Virus record (IMG/VR): IMGVR_UViG_2671180473_000007
Direction: 5' to 3' (one strand)
Length of the DNA: 43,998 nt
Origin: a virus
Taxonomy: Duplodnaviria > Heunggongvirae > Uroviricota > Caudoviricetes
Below, in pieces: positions 4,163 to 43,135 of this stretch. The notes beneath the pieces are model-generated. The model did no database searches, was not told where the DNA came from, and saw nothing but the letters and a program-made list of their open reading frames with translations. A program made the position numbers and the translations under genes. Positions within the stretch are counted from its first letter, which is position 1. Every line of letters starts with the position of its first letter.

Positions 4163-4744
4163 GTAAGCGTGCAGCAAGAACCGTATTGACGGGAATGTGT
4201 TATTCAGTCGGCAGTGCTACGCGCCAGGGGAGCAGTTCGCCGACCCGGTTTATCGGCCAGTCGGCTATGACGTCAAGGACATAGCGGAGGTAGCTTTCTG
4301 GCTCCACTCCGTTCAGTTTGCACGTCCCGATCAGGCTGTACAGCAGCGCTCCCCGCTCTCCTCCATGATCCGAACCGAAGAACAGGTAGTTTTTGCGGCC
4401 CAGACTGACCATCCGCAACGCATTTTCAGCGATGTTATTGTCCGCCTCAGCCCAGCCATCATCTGCATAGTACGTCAGCGCCGGCCACTGGTTCAGGGCA
4501 TATGCGAACGCTTTCGCCAGTTCTGAGTGTCGCGACAGGGTTTTCATCTTTTCACGCAGCCAGCTTTCCAGGGATTTCAGCAGCGGTTTCGTTTTCAACT
4601 GACGTTCGGCAAGGCGCTGTTTCAGCAGGAAGATGTCGTCAGAAGAGATGTCGTTCATAAGCCCGTATTTTACCGGGCTTATTCTGTGACAACCAGGATA
4701 AAGAGATTTACAGCATGGTCAGGGAGGTCAGCAGCCGCTTAGGC
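4163..4744 (-). mobile_element. IS66-family element, right-end fragment (terminal repeat plus 3' part of tnpC)
   Basis: GTAAGCG at 4163-4169 (IS66 ends typically start GTAA) lies ~37 bp beyond the tnpC stop. Inner boundary with the Mu-like end is uncertain (4660-4760). Confidence 0.6.
4200..4658 (-). pseudogene. IS66-family transposase TnpC, C-terminal fragment
   Basis: 152-aa ORF with ALNQWPALTYYADDGWAEADNNIAENALRMVSLGRKNYLFFGSDHGGERGALLYSLIGTCKLNGVEPESYLRYV, characteristic of the IS66 TnpC C-terminus; roughly 370 N-terminal residues are absent. Confidence 0.8.
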
Positions 4745-4876: not shown

Positions 4877-5614
4877 TCATTCACTCTCTTTCAAACCAGT
4901 TTTAACTGTTTGTGGTTTTGGGTAAGGCTGGACTTTGAATAGCTTTGTGTTAAGGCGTTTTCTGGCTCTCTTGTCCAGAAACCGGATGTAACGAAACTGA
5001 CGGAATTTATGAACACTGGCTCTGTCGATATTAGCCCGCAGATGTTCACCTCGCTGTCCTCCTCGTTTGATTGCATTCTTGCAAATCTCGTGATACCACT
5101 CGCCATCAAGTTCATAGAATGTTGTTTCATGACTGCCTACATAATCAAAATTGCTTGCCTGGTACACGACACCAAGACAGCCACAACGCTCATCTGCAAA
5201 CGACTGAACCCACTGCACCTGCGGATAAAGTTGTCTGATTAGTTTGAGCGCGTAACTGATTGCCCTTGATTCGGAGTTTCTCGGCATACAGTCATGCAGC
5301 CATAACCGGTTAAGCTCCATATATTCGCGGTTCTGCGTGCCAGTTACGACGCGTGCACCATTGTTTGGATTAAGGGCATAACCCCATTGCATTACGCCAA
5401 CCAGCTCCCGTTCTGAAAATATGCCCAGATGAAGGTAGGAATTATTTACGAAACGATGGCTGTAATGTTTATTGACGACGACCAGCCGGGCCAGCCAGCA
5501 ACTTATTGTCTCAACCCGTAACTCACGGGAGCCATAACCGACGATATTGTCGTTATAGTGAATAAGTTCAGGCGTGCTGATGATACGGGATGTAACTTGC
5601 TTTCTGTTCCCCAC
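4877..5614 (-). CDS. mom: Mom-like DNA modification protein (assignment by position)
   Basis: ORF track 4877..5809; lies immediately downstream of and overlapping a Com-like zinc-finger gene at the phage end, as in Mu. Start set to GTG at 5614 (AAGGAA upstream, just 5' of the com stop). No family motif recognised directly. Confidence 0.5.
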
Positions 5615-5768
5615 GACAGGATTTCCTTGTGTATGTGGGGTGCTCTGTGGCGCTCTGAGATGTGATTTGATTGAGGGTTTTACAGCGCGGACATTTAACT
5701 TCCAGATAACTGAAGCTGGCTCGTGCCAGTAGCTTGTTACAATGTCGGCACCGTATGTTTCGATACAT
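5568..5768 (-). CDS. com: Com-like zinc-finger translational activator
   Basis: ORF track 5568..5813 trimmed to ATG at 5768 (GGAGG 9 nt upstream); [35 protein letters not shown] has the CxxC...CxxC pattern and resembles Mu Com as I recall it. Confidence 0.7.
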
Positions 5769-5789
5769 GGCCGCATAACCTCCTGCTTT

Positions 5790-5840
5790 GTTGTTGATAT
5801 CTTTATCACTCAATCGATCGACAAAAACGATCGATTTGAT
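5790..5840 (-). promoter_or_regulatory. Putative com-mom promoter regulatory region with clustered GATC (Dam) sites
   Basis: GATC at 5816-5819 and 5829-5832 within nested atcgatcg palindromes, ~50-65 bp upstream of the com start; Mu Pmom is controlled by Dam methylation of upstream GATC sites. Confidence 0.4.
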
Positions 5841-6024
5841 TTATTTAATTGATACAACAAATAACACGAAATGTCATTAGCGAAAATTTATGAGTTTGAT
5901 CACTAATTTTAAACGGTGCTGTAACGCATAAGTGCTGAATGATTGTACATTTGAATACCGCAAAGCAAACAAATCAACTAATTTATAGAAGTCAATTGGT
6001 TAATTGCCAGCGTAAGAGGCTGCT

Positions 6025-6318
6025 ATGGACAATCATGTAACGACGAGAAATCGAAAAATGATTGAAAATGCGGAAATCTATAATGATTATTTTTCCGATT
6101 ATTCAGATGCCTGCAAATACAGTTCGAGTGCGGGAGAGTTCATATGCTTCAACTTTTTTATTAAATCTTATGTTTTTCCTCCACAGCAAGAAGATGGAGG
6201 TGTGCCACCTCCTGAAATCACTTTGCACCGTATAGCCTCCGTCTCAATGATGGAGCAACAGGCTAATGAGCTGTATAGCATTCTGGGAACGATTCTACAA
6301 AAGCGTGAATCGGACTAA
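6025..6318 (+). CDS. Hypothetical protein (97 aa) in AT-rich island, opposite strand to phage genes
   Basis: ATG with AAGAGG 7 nt upstream; sits in a markedly AT-rich block (~5820-6480) unlike the GC-rich backbone. No recognisable motif. Confidence 0.4.
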   Translation: MDNHVTTRNRKMIENAEIYNDYFSDYSDACKYSSSAGEFICFNFFIKSYVFPPQQEDGGVPPPEITLHRIASVSMMEQQANELYSILGTILQKRESD

Positions 6319-6485
6319 TGATACCGGTTCATTTGCCTGCCCGGATGGGGAAGCAGGATTGACTGCTCCATAAGCAGCTATATTTCTGAATACGAAATAC
6401 TATCCAGCGATTACATATGGCTGGATAGCGGCAAAGATGTTTTCATTAGTGTCAAACCGGCAGAGGACACCACCGGTTTGTATTG

Positions 6486-6740
6486 TTACATCATGGTACT
6501 GTCAGTTCCGGGCTGAGCCGGGTCTGGTTGCTCTGGCTGCGCGTCGGTTTTCGGCTCATTATCAGCATCACTGGCCGCAACTGCTGGCCCAATAAGTTTT
6601 GCCAGCACTTCATCAACGTAAGTGTCGATTTGTGCCTCAAAATCCTTGCGGACCTGCGCTTTCAGCAACTTATTTACTTCACCGGAATACAGTGCCTGTT
6701 TTACCAGGTCTTCAGTGACGGTGCCTTTAATTTCTGGCAT
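6486..6740 (-). CDS. Hypothetical small acidic protein (84 aa)
   Basis: ATG preceded by perfect AGGAGG at 7-nt spacing; acidic, Pro/Asp/Glu-rich C-terminus. Confidence 0.55.
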   Translation of the reverse strand: MPEIKGTVTEDLVKQALYSGEVNKLLKAQVRKDFEAQIDTYVDEVLAKLIGPAVAASDADNEPKTDAQPEQPDPAQPGTDSTMM

Positions 6741-6775
6741 GTATATCCTCCTTATGCGGGAATAAAGCCCTGCAA

Positions 6776-6958
6776 TCAGGGCTGGGTCGGGTCTTTTGGG
6801 AGCGGAGTTACCTGCGCTGTTTTACTGAGTTTTTCAGCTGCTGCGTCCTCAATTTTGCGGCGAACATAATTTCTGATGGCCTTATAACCACCACTCACCA
6901 GATATAACGCACATACTGCCGTGCAGAAATACAATAAAATAAGCTGTAAAAATGTCAT
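6776..6958 (-). CDS. Hypothetical small membrane protein (60 aa, one N-terminal TM helix)
   Basis: ORF track 6776..6970 trimmed to ATG at 6958 (GGGAGGG upstream): MTFLQLILLYFCTAVCALYLVSGGYKAIRNYVRRK, hydrophobic helix then basic region. Confidence 0.55.
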   Translation of the reverse strand: MTFLQLILLYFCTAVCALYLVSGGYKAIRNYVRRKIEDAAAEKLSKTAQVTPLPKDPTQP

Positions 6959-7054
6959 TATCCCTCCCAATTATTGACATGGTGTTGACACCGGTAATAT
7001 CTGTTAGGTAAAAAGGTGCACTGCATTTTTTGCTTTGGATATAACGATCTTTTT

Positions 7055-7097
7055 GCCGCCGGTTTCTTGTTTTCCCTTACCGGCGGCATTTTTTTAT
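7055..7097 (+). terminator. Canonical rho-independent terminator, plus-strand orientation
   Basis: 9-bp perfect GC-rich stem gccgccggt/accggcggc (7055-7063/7079-7087) followed by atttttttat; T-run only on the plus strand although flanking genes are minus-strand. Confidence 0.5.
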
Positions 7098-7102
7098 CCT
7101 GC

Positions 7103-9157
7103 TTACGCGTTATTCACTTCCACCACGATACTGTCAATCAGTACCGGGTAAGTCGCATTTTTAGTGATATCGGTCACGCGCAACTTGTCTGCCGTAAACG
7201 TGCCGACCGGAGACTGCGACAGCATGAATGGTGTCCCGTCCTTACCATCAATGACCGGCGTCACCTCAATACTGTTGTTACCGGCAAAACGGAAGCCCAG
7301 CGTATGCCATTCGTTATTAAATGCGCCGAATGACCCCAGCTTCGTGTTCTGCGCCGTGTTTCCTTTGTGATACATCACGTTAAGGTCTGTGGCATCGCTC
7401 TGTACGTAGAACGATGCCAGCAGGTTATGACCGGCATTTCCTTCCAGAGTAACCCCTTGCGGCAGGGCAGAAACCGGCCAGTACAGCGCCAGTGCGTACT
7501 GATTAGCCGTAAGCGCGCCATCGAGTTTAAAACGACAACTGACAAGACCACCTTTACCCAGCAGGTCCGCACCATTACCAGCATCATGCTCAAGGTACCA
7601 GGGGGCTCTTCCTGTTTCCTTGGTCAGTTTCATTGCCTTACCCCCGCTGGCTCCGGCATCATCCACGATTTGAGCCTTGCCACCTCCGGCAGCCCAACCC
7701 TGTGGTGTCAACCGTCCTTCAGACTCAGATGCCCGGTAAGCAAATAGCGTACTCATCGTCGTGGTGTCTGCGGGTGGCGTGGACGGTTTTGATGGTGTAT
7801 CAGGTGACGGCTTCTCATCCGGTGGTGTCACGGTCTGCCCACGCATCAGTTCAGCCGTGCGCCCTGCATGGAGCATAATAGCTGAGGCCAGACGGTCTGA
7901 AATGACGCCCCTGCGTGCCCATGAGCTGAAATGGCTGTCACGCTGTGTCGAAACAAAACTGCCCTGGGTTCGGGATGCTGCACCGTAATACCCGACAGCC
8001 ACAATATCCGGGTCTTCCGCCGGAGCATTCGTTGGCGTGCTCTGTCCATTCTCATCCGTCAGGAACGGTACAAAGAAAATTTTCTGTGCTTCCTTGCCTT
8101 TGTAGCCACCGTATACTGCCTCATATTTATCGGTGCCAGCGTTTTTCCAGTAATACGTGGTATCACCGCAAATCCACGGCACCGTGGTGGCATTTCCACT
8201 CACGCACTGCGCAGCAAGCGGAGCCAGGTCAGTTCTGAACTGCTGAACCATGGCCGTGAATAAACTATTATGCTGCTGGCTTCCTGAGGCAAGGTCTGCC
8301 TCTCCCTGCATCCAGACCACAGCCAGAAGTTTGTTTTTCGGGTTTTTCGCCAGCGCGACTTTGGTGCGGCTTACCAGGTCCTGATACAGAGGTTTACCGG
8401 CCCCCCAGCGTGAAGAATCAGCGGAAGCACCGCTGGCCTCACTGAATGAGCCGTCGGCTCCAGTGGTGAATGCTGACCCGCCACGACAACAGGGCACCAG
8501 AAGTATCCCGGCATTCTGTGGGATATAGGGAAGCAGTTTTTTGGCAATATGCAACCCCTGACCGACAGTCCCGTACTGGCCTTTTGCCAGATCAGCTTTC
8601 GGGTGGTTTATCCCGCTCATATCCTGAACATCATGCAGGCAGTGGTCTGCCGGAATGATGTCGTTGTATGTACACGACGTACCGTTGGGCGTTACCGTAC
8701 TGCGGCGTGCCAGTTGCTTAATGCGTGGGTCCGGGCGGTCAAACGAATCCGGTAACGGCAGCCCCTCGCCGTAGGCCATGCCATTTGACTGACCCGCGAG
8801 AATGACAACAAAGTAATATTCCGGCTCTGAACTGCTGCCATTCGTGCTACCGGAAGGCCCGGCGTTATCCGGTGCATTCCAGTCGGAGGGCGTGAGCGTT
8901 CCGGCCACGTCAGATGTGATTGGAATGATGCCAGTCACGCCTGAACTGGTGATTTCTGCACTGGGATTACCGGATACCGGCATTACCCATAATGGCTCTT
9001 TCGTGCTGAAGCGGATCACGCAGTCTGCGAAGGTGATCCCCCCTTTATTACCCGAAGGGCGGAAAGGGCTTTCAATAAATGCCACCGTGCCACCGGCAAC
9101 CTTGACTGAAAACTCTCCGGGCATGGCGGAGAGCATTTTCCACTTGGAGTCTGACAT
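7103..9157 (-). CDS. SASA/SGNH-family carbohydrate esterase (prophage NanS-p-like sialate O-acetylesterase candidate) with C-terminal lectin-like domain
   Basis: 684-aa ORF; VILAGQSNGMAYGEG resembles the GQSNM catalytic block of sialate O-acetylesterase-type domains, with WMQGEAD and DHCLHD further on. Sits between gin and mom, where Mu has no gene. Confidence 0.6.
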   Translation of the reverse strand: MSDSKWKMLSAMPGEFSVKVAGGTVAFIESPFRPSGNKGGITFADCVIRFSTKEPLWVMPVSGNPSAEITSSGVTGIIPITSDVAGTLTPSDWNAPDNAGPSGSTNGSSSEPEYYFVVILAGQSNGMAYGEGLPLPDSFDRPDPRIKQLARRSTVTPNGTSCTYNDIIPADHCLHDVQDMSGINHPKADLAKGQYGTVGQGLHIAKKLLPYIPQNAGILLVPCCRGGSAFTTGADGSFSEASGASADSSRWGAGKPLYQDLVSRTKVALAKNPKNKLLAVVWMQGEADLASGSQQHNSLFTAMVQQFRTDLAPLAAQCVSGNATTVPWICGDTTYYWKNAGTDKYEAVYGGYKGKEAQKIFFVPFLTDENGQSTPTNAPAEDPDIVAVGYYGAASRTQGSFVSTQRDSHFSSWARRGVISDRLASAIMLHAGRTAELMRGQTVTPPDEKPSPDTPSKPSTPPADTTTMSTLFAYRASESEGRLTPQGWAAGGGKAQIVDDAGASGGKAMKLTKETGRAPWYLEHDAGNGADLLGKGGLVSCRFKLDGALTANQYALALYWPVSALPQGVTLEGNAGHNLLASFYVQSDATDLNVMYHKGNTAQNTKLGSFGAFNNEWHTLGFRFAGNNSIEVTPVIDGKDGTPFMLSQSPVGTFTADKLRVTDITKNATYPVLIDSIVVEVNNA

Positions 9158-35440: not shown

Positions 35441-35988
35441 GGCGTTAACTCCCGTAATACAGCGTCCTCGGCAGTCCGGCGACGGTAATAAACTGCGTGA
35501 GCAGAATGTTCAGATATTCCAAACTTTTCGCCAATTTCCCGGAATGACAGACGGCGTGGGTAATCGGAATCACGCAGCTCACGTATAAGACGTACATCAT
35601 CATCAGATATGCGCGTGCCGGGGCGTAACTCTCCGCACTTTGTTAATCCAGCACCAATCATTCCTGCCCGACATCTGACAGAATCTTTATTACGTCCGAG
35701 ATATTCTCCCATTTGCTGGCAGGTCATTGTTCTGGCATTTTTTCGAATAAACTTATCTTCATCAGGTGTAAATCTTGGGTGTTTATATTTCAGTAACTCC
35801 GGGTATGAACTGCGCAATACACCAGTCCGGTTATATACAGCCCAGACAGTTCTTTTTATTCTGGCAGCAATATCCTTAACCGGGGTGGATGAATAAAGCG
35901 CAATCAGCAGCGCATCTTCTTCAGGTGTCCACGGACGGACATGAGCGGGGGCGCGACCTTTTAGTCCCATGGGTTGTAATTTCATCAT
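35437..35988 (-). CDS. Putative DNA-binding protein with C-terminal HTH
   Basis: 183-aa ORF; two W/FTPEED-like repeats and C-terminal LSFREIGEKFGISEHSAHAVYYRRR resembling an HTH. Confidence 0.45.
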   Translation of the reverse strand: MMKLQPMGLKGRAPAHVRPWTPEEDALLIALYSSTPVKDIAARIKRTVWAVYNRTGVLRSSYPELLKYKHPRFTPDEDKFIRKNARTMTCQQMGEYLGRNKDSVRCRAGMIGAGLTKCGELRPGTRISDDDVRLIRELRDSDYPRRLSFREIGEKFGISEHSAHAVYYRRRTAEDAVLRELTP

Positions 35989-42173: not shown

Positions 42174-42404
42174 TTACGCGACCTTACGAATGTAGCGGCT
42201 GGGCCAAATCTCCTCGGGCGGCACCCCCAGGCATTCCGCGATAATCCCCTCATACTTGGGAACATGGCGGTATACCGCGTTGTACAGATTGTTCTGACCC
42301 ACGCCAGCTTTACGGGCCAGCGCCCTCATGCTTCCTTCTCTGGCTCTGACTTCCCCCAAAATTCTTTGAGGATGCCAATCAGGCTTAACTTCATTTCTCG
42401 CCAT
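42174..42404 (-). CDS. ner: Ner-like DNA-binding regulator
   Basis: 76-aa ORF with HTH and C-terminal ...EEIWPSRY motif as in Mu Ner; immediately upstream of the transposase and divergent from the repressor. Confidence 0.85.
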   Translation of the reverse strand: MARNEVKPDWHPQRILGEVRAREGSMRALARKAGVGQNNLYNAVYRHVPKYEGIIAECLGVPPEEIWPSRYIRKVA

Positions 42405-42589
42405 GATTCATCTATCCTAAAAAGTTACGAAATTTGATAACTAAACTTAGTTATCAAGTTTGATATAAGTATTGATCCACTTCTGCTTCATGTAAAGCAA
42501 AAAAAACATCTTTCTTTTGTCTATTGTGGATCAATGGTTGCTGACAACACTAAAAGTTAATAATTTCAAATTGATAGGAAGAAAAGAAA
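42405..42589. promoter_or_regulatory. Divergent repressor/ner control region with palindromic operator candidates
   Basis: GATAACTAA-ac-TTAGTTATC (42433-42452, perfect 9-bp arms) and inverted pair ATTGATCCAC (42469-42478) / GTGGATCAAT (42524-42533). Confidence 0.5.
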
Positions 42590-43135
42590 ATGAACAAGCA
42601 AACAACAACATCTCTTTCTTTTCCTGGTGGTAGAAAAGAAAGCATTGCTGAGCGTCTGAAAAGGCTGATTGGCTCCCGCAGCGTCAGAGCTGCAGCAAGA
42701 GATTGGGGGCTTTCATTTTCAACACTAAACAATTATCTGTCTCGTGGCACTGAGCCATCCTTAAGTGTCGCCCTTCAGATTGCGTCTATCGAAGGAGTAA
42801 GTGTTGAGTGGCTATGTGGATTCAGTGATGCATCACAAGTGAATCGGTGTGAGATCAAGGAAAATCAAGATGAAAGCAAGAAGATAATTATGACGATTAT
42901 CAGCGCACTTGATGAAAAAGACTTAGAGCAGCTATCGAAAAATTTGGTTCTGAATGGAGCCAAGTACTTAGCTCGGTTGTTAGAGCCTGAAAATCAAGAT
43001 CTAATCCGCTTAGAAGGAAGGAAAAGAATAGCTGCATTACAGCTTGAAGGTATGTCTGACGAACGCGTCAGAGAGATTTTGGAAGAAACTGAGAGAAGTC
43101 GCAAATCTAACGCGGTAGAACCAAAAGCGGGTTAA
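42590..43135 (+). CDS. Putative prophage repressor (Mu c position; HTH_XRE-type N-terminus)
   Basis: 181-aa ORF with AGGAAG RBS, divergent from ner and nearest the phage end; N-terminal ERLKRLIGSRSVRAAARDWGLSFSTLNNYLSRGTEPSLSVALQIASIEGVSVEWL resembles a Cro/CI-type HTH. Confidence 0.65.
   Translation: MNKQTTTSLSFPGGRKESIAERLKRLIGSRSVRAAARDWGLSFSTLNNYLSRGTEPSLSVALQIASIEGVSVEWLCGFSDASQVNRCEIKENQDESKKIIMTIISALDEKDLEQLSKNLVLNGAKYLARLLEPENQDLIRLEGRKRIAALQLEGMSDERVREILEETERSRKSNAVEPKAG

Follow-up and report, generated by a model that had tools for sequence, protein, structure and literature searches.

A solo relative of the lead gene of Panacea-associated three-gene cassettes lies in an exchangeable slot beside the mom promoter of an Escherichia coli Mu-like prophage

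Comparison of related prophages identifies the AT-rich island upstream of the mom operon of an Escherichia coli Mu-like prophage as an exchangeable moron slot, bounded on one side by the 95-bp mom regulatory region and on the other by the terminator of the DUF826 operon. The island was analysed within a 43,998-nt stretch of DNA (IMG/VR record IMGVR_UViG_2671180473_000007; hereafter the window), in which the prophage is read from its right end. Here the slot carries ORF97 (6025-6318, plus strand), encoding an acidic protein of 97 aa (pI 4.7) that is a solo member of a family of small proteins found elsewhere as the first product, A, of three-gene cassettes designated A-B-C. We assign a probability of about 0.5 to the composite reading in which the island is such a slot, ORF97 is a real gene, and its product is an A-family helper acting as an orphan.

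Genes for MuA, MuB, GemA, a Mor/C-family activator and Gin were identified in the window by Pfam, and the prophage element is closed by two minus-strand genes, com and mom. The former (5568-5768, 66 aa; Pfam Zn_ribbon_Com, E=1.3e-12; 'Com family' in PGAP) encodes the translational activator of mom, and the latter (4877-5614, 245 aa according to PGAP, with coordinates taken from the identical copy L001; Pfam Mom, PF25680, E=1.6e-77) is the last gene of the prophage. The gap between gin and com is 95 bp in phage Mu (gin end at 35673, com start at 35768), whereas it amounts to about 3.4 kb here and comprises a 684-aa esterase-like gene with DUF6645 (E=7e-68) and SASA (E=1.5e-13) domains (7103-9157), a DUF1378 gene (6776-6970; E=1.2e-31) and a DUF826 gene (6486-6740; E=6.4e-16; phrog_311), all on the minus strand, followed by the AT-rich region, in which ORF97 is convergent with the DUF826 gene. 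The sequence-only reading had placed the island between the mom promoter and a group of cargo genes, and this position was correct, com, mom and the SASA+DUF6645, DUF1378 and DUF826 genes all being confirmed by Pfam. The latter trio (6486-9157), a combination typical of lambdoid and Stx phages, may represent a larger imported block between gin and com. To the left of mom, an ORF is present on the minus strand at 4200-4658, and the DNA at about 2260-4160 matches genes for tail fibres found in other prophages of E. coli (tail fiber N-terminal domain, DUF4376), so that the Mu-like element appears to sit within or beside another prophage. In E. coli 2013C-4081, a DNA cytosine methyltransferase gene is annotated downstream of com in place of mom (L020, 2363-3415), and a different DNA-modification enzyme may be under the control of Com in that strain.

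Windowed GC calculation confirmed that the island contrasts with a GC-rich backbone. The GC content of 5820-6485 was 39.0% compared to 53.4% for the whole window, and only 0.7% of the N-free windows of 666 bp were as GC-poor (z=-2.7), all of them located here or near 42.3-43.1 kb; the earlier description of the island as strongly AT-rich was nevertheless somewhat generous. The ranking left out a run of 229 N at 2448-2676, which corresponds to the apparently deepest GC dip of the window (about 2450-2680, apparent GC of 11.7%) and is a masked region or assembly gap and not a real AT-rich island. Within 5820-6485, the lowest GC was found in the com-proximal non-coding DNA (33-35%), and ORF97 itself has a GC content of 39.8%. 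The sole other natural low-GC island in the window (about 42300-43100, about 38% GC) lies at the repressor/early-operator end and adjoins a 181-aa ORF (42590-43135, plus strand) without a Pfam match.

The limits of the slot were obtained by aligning five variants of the region, namely those of the window, CI5, FORC_069, 2013C-4081 and M18. All five have in common the 95 bp that precede the com ATG (5769-5863, 33.7% GC; the same length as the gin-com interval of Mu), and divergence begins directly after '...TTGATACAACAAATA'. Homology to the other Mu-like prophages resumes at a hairpin (6454-6479), which is likewise shared by all five variants together with the end of the DUF826 gene, while the DNA between the two junctions carries unrelated genes, mostly on the plus strand. 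We therefore consider the 590 bp from 5864 to 6453 to be an exchangeable moron cassette, read on the plus strand, with a GC content of 39.4% against the 53.4% of the window. Of 5426 complete E. coli genomes, 18 carry the variant present in the window, among them copies with 96.6% and 84% identity, and more than 200 further E. coli genomes match the com side only. The prophage lineage was found at no fewer than six distinct chromosomal insertion sites, with the ORF97 gene kept.

Like known phage morons, the cassette is swapped or absent among close relatives at fixed junctions, differs in composition from its conserved surroundings (39% vs 53% GC), and carries a gene oriented against the flanking late operons that ends at a terminator-like hairpin; unlike them, the terminator is shared backbone, and the promoter is perhaps borrowed from the mom control region. 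The earlier suggestion of a separately acquired moron was thus supported by five variants with unrelated inserts, by the atypical composition and by purifying selection on the gene (see below). Of the interval originally regarded as cargo, 5864-6453 stands, whereas the leftmost 45 bp or so (5820-5863) turned out to be conserved mom regulatory DNA. By eye, the FORC_069 slot (L003, 4476-4881) and the Salmonella locus described below (L012, 8837-9227) contain a similar small convergent gene pair, encoding 68-74 aa on the plus strand and 46-78 aa on the minus strand, which hints that variable regions swap modules across genera.

The hairpin is terminator-like on both strands, with the stronger fold on the minus strand (dG -16.7 kcal/mol, z=-2.9) and the weaker one on the plus strand (dG -12.6 kcal/mol, z=-1.8); the values for CI5 were -18.9/-16.6 (z about -4.6). 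The U-tract is better on the plus strand, and in the window and FORC_069 full pairing is reached only as minus-strand RNA, via G-U pairs. Since five variants with different cassettes keep the hairpin through compensatory and wobble changes, and since it begins 6 nt past the DUF826 stop and folds better on the minus strand, we interpret it primarily as the terminator of the DUF826 operon, belonging to the backbone and not to the ORF97 cargo. Hence, the weak hairpin that had been noted behind the ORF is present, but as a backbone terminator fitting the opposite strand better it is not the ORF's own.

Several lines of comparison indicated that ORF97 is a real gene under purifying selection. Its ATG at 6025 is preceded, at a distance of 5 nt, by the Shine-Dalgarno sequence AAGAGG (6014-6019; GAGAGG/AAGAGG in CI5 and M3), confirming the earlier call of a 97-aa plus-strand ORF with a good ribosome binding site. 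Between ORF97 and its CI5 ortholog (87% nucleotide and 79% amino-acid identity), dN/dS was 0.36 (0.30 in residues 12-94), compared to 0.63 and 1.17 in the other two frames, with a deficit of non-synonymous changes (binomial p=0.006) and a 6-nt indel that leaves the frame intact. Moreover, all six distinct alleles that were fetched keep the 6025 ATG and an intact frame of 97-100 aa. PGAP annotates only 86 aa, starting from an internal ATG at 6058, and this start was not supported, as that ATG is missing in CI5 whereas the 6025 ATG is present in all six alleles. Some strains carry IS-disrupted or frameshifted alleles (4 of 14 protein clusters are truncated or IS-disrupted), and ORF97 is therefore dispensable in these strains. 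In two of the truncated E. coli alleles, P0011 and P0014, the protein breaks at residues 57 and 37, respectively, and continues into the same foreign peptide, GNDSNLLIVFYVQIMPDD..., which suggests that the same insertion element struck ORF97 twice.

It could be argued that the ORF is spurious and that the island consists of mom regulatory DNA, with sites for the activator, OxyR/Dam or Fis, or encodes a non-coding RNA, but we find this very improbable. The mom control region of Mu is crowded with binding sites (PMC3378877), the regulatory DNA at 5769-5863 is invariant, and conservation is higher over 5864-5960 than over the ORF (94% vs 87%), all of which would agree with a regulatory role. However, such a role would account neither for the frame-specific substitution pattern nor for collinear homologs of the same length (57%, 31% and about 25% identity) in unrelated DNA contexts of Salmonella, Yersinia, Klebsiella and Enterobacter, and relatives swap out all of 5864-6453 yet retain mom. 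In addition, no RNA element was matched in Rfam above noise, and the leader gave no fold signal (z=+0.5). The sequence-only reading had named, as the outcome that would speak against it, an unconserved ORF in conserved non-coding promoter DNA; DNA of this kind was found over 5769-5863 only, and not over 5864-6318.

No match to ORF97 or its relatives was obtained in Pfam (E<=1), PHROG, NCBIfam or PADLOC, and a sequence-profile search of the PDB returned nothing for either. Word-indexed searches recovered only Escherichia/Shigella copies and one Salmonella protein (P0016, 57% identical), and an exhaustive HMMER search of 1.8 billion representative proteins added one remote relative, P0015 of Yersinia enterocolitica (97 aa, 31% identical, E=1.4e-4); these relatives are also acidic. 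The lead genes of A-B-C cassettes, encoding about 98 aa, align collinearly with ORF97 at the same length, and an HMM built from 14 ABC-type A proteins, leaving out the window and Salmonella sequences, matched ORF97 as the sole hit among the 345 ORFs of the window (E=5.7e-17; 3e-10 at Z=1.8e9). The previous assignment as a 97-aa protein of unknown function could thus be narrowed to a solo member of the A-B-C lead-gene family. Two AlphaFold2 runs with different alignments gave unreliable models (pLDDT 53 and 51) with conflicting secondary structure. Further A-family members were found neither among GTDB species representatives nor on plasmids, only E. coli-type copies were found in IMG/VR, and isolated phages yielded no members except remote relatives in vB_EcoS-733R5 and 716R3; ORF97 is rare and uncharacterised. 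At the Salmonella P0016 locus, A is followed by an unrelated, overlapping gene whose basic product of 126 aa contains a coiled coil and, at its C-terminus, a hydrophobic helix, and A again lies opposite a SASA/DUF6645 gene.

In Yersinia, P0015 is encoded in lambdoid prophages directly downstream of a cI-type repressor gene, the position of rexAB in lambda, and is the first product of a coupled trio of genes encoding 97, 95 and 123 aa. The A-B-C trio was also found in E. coli phage vB_EcoS-733R5 and in Klebsiella, near a retron-type RT, as well as in Enterobacter lambdoid prophages, between tape-measure and minor-tail genes. The three genes overlap by 1-4 nt and occur together in Yersinia, Klebsiella, Enterobacter and IMG/VR contigs. 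Gene C belongs to a family of about 80 clusters from Gammaproteobacteria and gave no Pfam or PDB match. In Pseudidiomarina and at most of 80 IMG/VR loci, the gene immediately upstream of C encodes a SocA_Panacea protein of 180-213 aa (PF13274, E=1e-19 to 1e-21) with a C-terminal tail. Panacea proteins are described as type II antitoxins with many unrelated toxins as binding partners (PMC8832971), and gene C probably encodes a toxin, since it is paired with SocA/Panacea antitoxins at these other loci. Across 31 diverse members of the C family (e.g., L008, 8580-8951), residues H70, Y71, H72, G74, S89, H94, Y95, H111, P112 and P113 are invariant, and the motif LWHYHxG ... HY ... HPPF is suggestive of an active site. 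A proposed likeness of C to the toxin YafO was not upheld (hhalign against K-12 YafO, probability 0.2%). The short B protein matches only the tail of the Panacea antitoxins, corresponding to their last 44 residues or so (hhalign 97.9%, E=4.8e-13), and would be a Panacea-less antitoxin that has kept just the C-terminal tail of PanA.

The two forms of the gene upstream of C differ in what precedes them. Counted over non-redundant loci, a coupled upstream gene was present at 26 of the 28 loci with the short Panacea-less B (14 of the A family, 7 of a CxxC zinc-ribbon family and 5 of other types, so that 12 of the 26 are non-A), compared to 2 of the 27 loci with the long Panacea form, both of other types (Fisher p=4e-11). 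Panacea can be an accessory domain, in which case a separate C-terminal element neutralises the toxin and needs stabilising once isolated (PMC10440598), and conserved third 'accessory' genes are known in TA loci (PMC8832971). The association of short B with an upstream gene fits the published accessory role of Panacea, and on the most economical reading A would be a free-standing helper of the short antitoxin. We propose that A would bind protein and contribute in trans the function that Panacea contributes in cis, thereby supporting or controlling B. The argument that A replaces Panacea is purely positional, as the A family is homologous to neither Panacea nor B (hhalign probability <=0.2%). 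A split Panacea antitoxin made up of A and B was considered, as the summed lengths fit, but was rejected since A gave only 0.1-0.2% against the Panacea region and only B matches the tail. Similarly, the proteins of about 104 aa upstream of other short B genes are not distant relatives of A (hhalign 0.2%) but form the separate CxxC zinc-ribbon family, which may be a second free-standing Panacea substitute. Examples of these zinc-ribbon-like proteins, with two CxxC pairs, are encoded at L071 2626-2940, L073/L077/L078 2921-3235, L098 2916-3230 and L106 2872-3174.

Neither B nor C, nor a remnant of them, was detected by tblastn in the 44-kb window (all E>0.1). ORF97 shows full-length homology to the cassette lead gene and is not followed by coupled B and C genes; it has no PF13274 domain, and the next gene downstream is the convergent DUF826 gene, with no adjacent cognate toxin. 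As B and C are lacking from the prophage, A most likely is an orphan here, which would act on related modules encoded elsewhere, in an anti-addiction or anti-abortive-infection role, or on another partner. The 11 E. coli genomes that carry an ABC cassette and the 18 solo-A genomes have none in common.

ORF97 might also be a leftover from a once-complete TA-like operon that lost its downstream partner, A persisting without a role of its own, a reading that we regard as rather unlikely. In line with such a loss, the Salmonella homolog has a coupled downstream gene, disrupted and frameshifted alleles exist, and an ATG overlapping the ORF97 stop (TAATGA) opens an ORF of only 14 codons, so that this overlap may mark where a coupled partner was lost. 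The 134 bp that follow (3' spacer, 6319-6453) are poorly conserved and form the fastest-evolving segment, with 63% identity to CI5 compared to 87% for ORF97 (p=1.6e-7). On the other hand, no partner remnant was detectable in the spacer (tblastn for B or C, none with E<0.1), and a gene without a role would not be expected to show purifying selection (dN/dS 0.36, p=0.006) between sequences that differ at about 13% of nucleotides and by an indel that keeps the frame, to be full length in six of six alleles, or to be kept by a mobile lineage at at least six insertion sites.

The linkage within the cassettes bears on another alternative, in which ORF97 would be a stand-alone lysogenic-conversion or superinfection-exclusion protein unrelated to TA and the A-B-C association would reflect co-transfer of neighbouring morons. 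A occurs in three downstream arrangements, followed by B-C, by the 126-aa membrane protein or by nothing, it is always found at sites typical of morons (behind cI, among tail genes and beside mom), and the PADLOC v2 defence models gave no match for ORF97, P0015, P0016, B or C. We nevertheless doubt this explanation, as A, B and C overlap by a few nucleotides and travel together across genera, and a coupled upstream gene accompanies Panacea-less B in nearly all cases (p=4e-11), which would be unexpected for independent morons.

For the orphan A-family helper of the composite reading, the position beside mom would also offer a route to expression. In Mu, the mom region contains the divergent promoters momP1 and momP2, and RNAP is located at momP2 without C and shifts to momP1 with C (PMC4287176, PMC3378877). 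As in Mu, the prophage studied here combines a com-mom operon with a Mor/C-family activator (Pfam Com, Mom and Mor), a weak, activator-dependent promoter and a cluster of GATC sites upstream. The plus-strand cargo is placed along the expected path of a P2-type transcript, and in every slot variant the cargo lies on the strand that such a transcript would read, whereas P2 of Mu reads into the end of gin without known cargo. A promoter-like sequence facing the cassette, TTGATA-17-TGTCAT (5849-5877, plus strand; 9/12 in a relaxed scan), has its -35 in the shared backbone, with TTGATA invariant in all variants, and is a candidate momP2-type divergent promoter of weak consensus. A further promoter-like candidate, TCGACA-16-TTTATT (5818-5845), also scored 9/12, and a strict scan found no strong sigma-70 promoter for ORF97 above chance. 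From the use of P2 without C in Mu and the strand of the cargo in all variants, we infer that ORF97 would be expressed when the late activator is absent, i.e., in lysogeny or early infection, and would be off once C activates mom; this timing is also suggested by the orientation of ORF97 against all late genes and by its place immediately downstream of where momP2 lies in Mu.

The same regulatory region contains a perfect palindrome, AATCGATCG-N7-CGATCGATT (5812-5836), a 9-bp inverted repeat that is invariant in the five variants, includes two GATC (Dam) sites, at 5816 and 5829, and precedes the com ATG by only about 45-65 nt. It is a candidate site for the late activator or for a methylation-sensitive regulator. 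Together with a third GATC at 5898, the sites upstream of mom form an arrangement unlike that of the three sites of Mu, which lie much farther from com than the GATCs of the palindrome, so that methylation may control mom in a different manner in this lineage.

The A-B-C cassettes resemble PanA-PanT (SocA/Panacea) pairs in that the C family is mostly preceded by a Panacea antitoxin and B shares the antitoxin tail (PMC8832971, PMC10440598), whereas ORF97 has neither a Panacea domain nor homology to it (<=0.2%) and the window contains neither antitoxin B nor toxin C. With tripartite TA systems such as paaR-paaA-parE and toxin-antitoxin-chaperone modules (cited in PMC8832971), the cassettes share a coupled three-gene operon, a small extra protein and a location on prophages. 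A differs from the third components of those systems in being acidic and in lacking signatures of an HTH regulator or of a SecB-like chaperone (no Pfam match), and it is solo in the window. Orphan or solo antitoxins exist, as do phage anti-toxin factors, in the form of anti-addiction modules and Dmd of T4. By analogy with these, ORF97 would be a neutraliser-side component carried without a toxin on a mobile element, and could act in trans; in contrast to them, no target cassette co-occurs in the solo-A genomes. A fully specified scenario can also be drawn up, in which ORF97 is a trans neutraliser or decoy derived from the helper of a tripartite PanT-type cassette, is expressed from a momP2-type promoter only without the late activator, and shields the phage or lysogen from the abortive-infection and addiction modules of rival prophages, with the A and Zn-ribbon families replacing the Panacea domain. 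Taken with all of its parts, this scenario is distinctly unlikely.

In conclusion, accessory genes of E. coli Mu-like prophages are exchanged at a fixed point in the DNA just upstream of the mom promoter, and this site is thus a place to seek functions expressed in lysogeny. Even if the helper reading fails, the analysis provides the correct 97-aa gene where PGAP has 86 aa. An orphan E. coli protein is tied to an undescribed three-gene form of Panacea-associated TA systems, in which Panacea is missing and a separate small protein is present instead; A, B and C now allow a direct test of the published view that Panacea is an accessory module that can be replaced. A transposable phage that carries the helper gene by itself would harbour a candidate anti-toxin or anti-defence factor.
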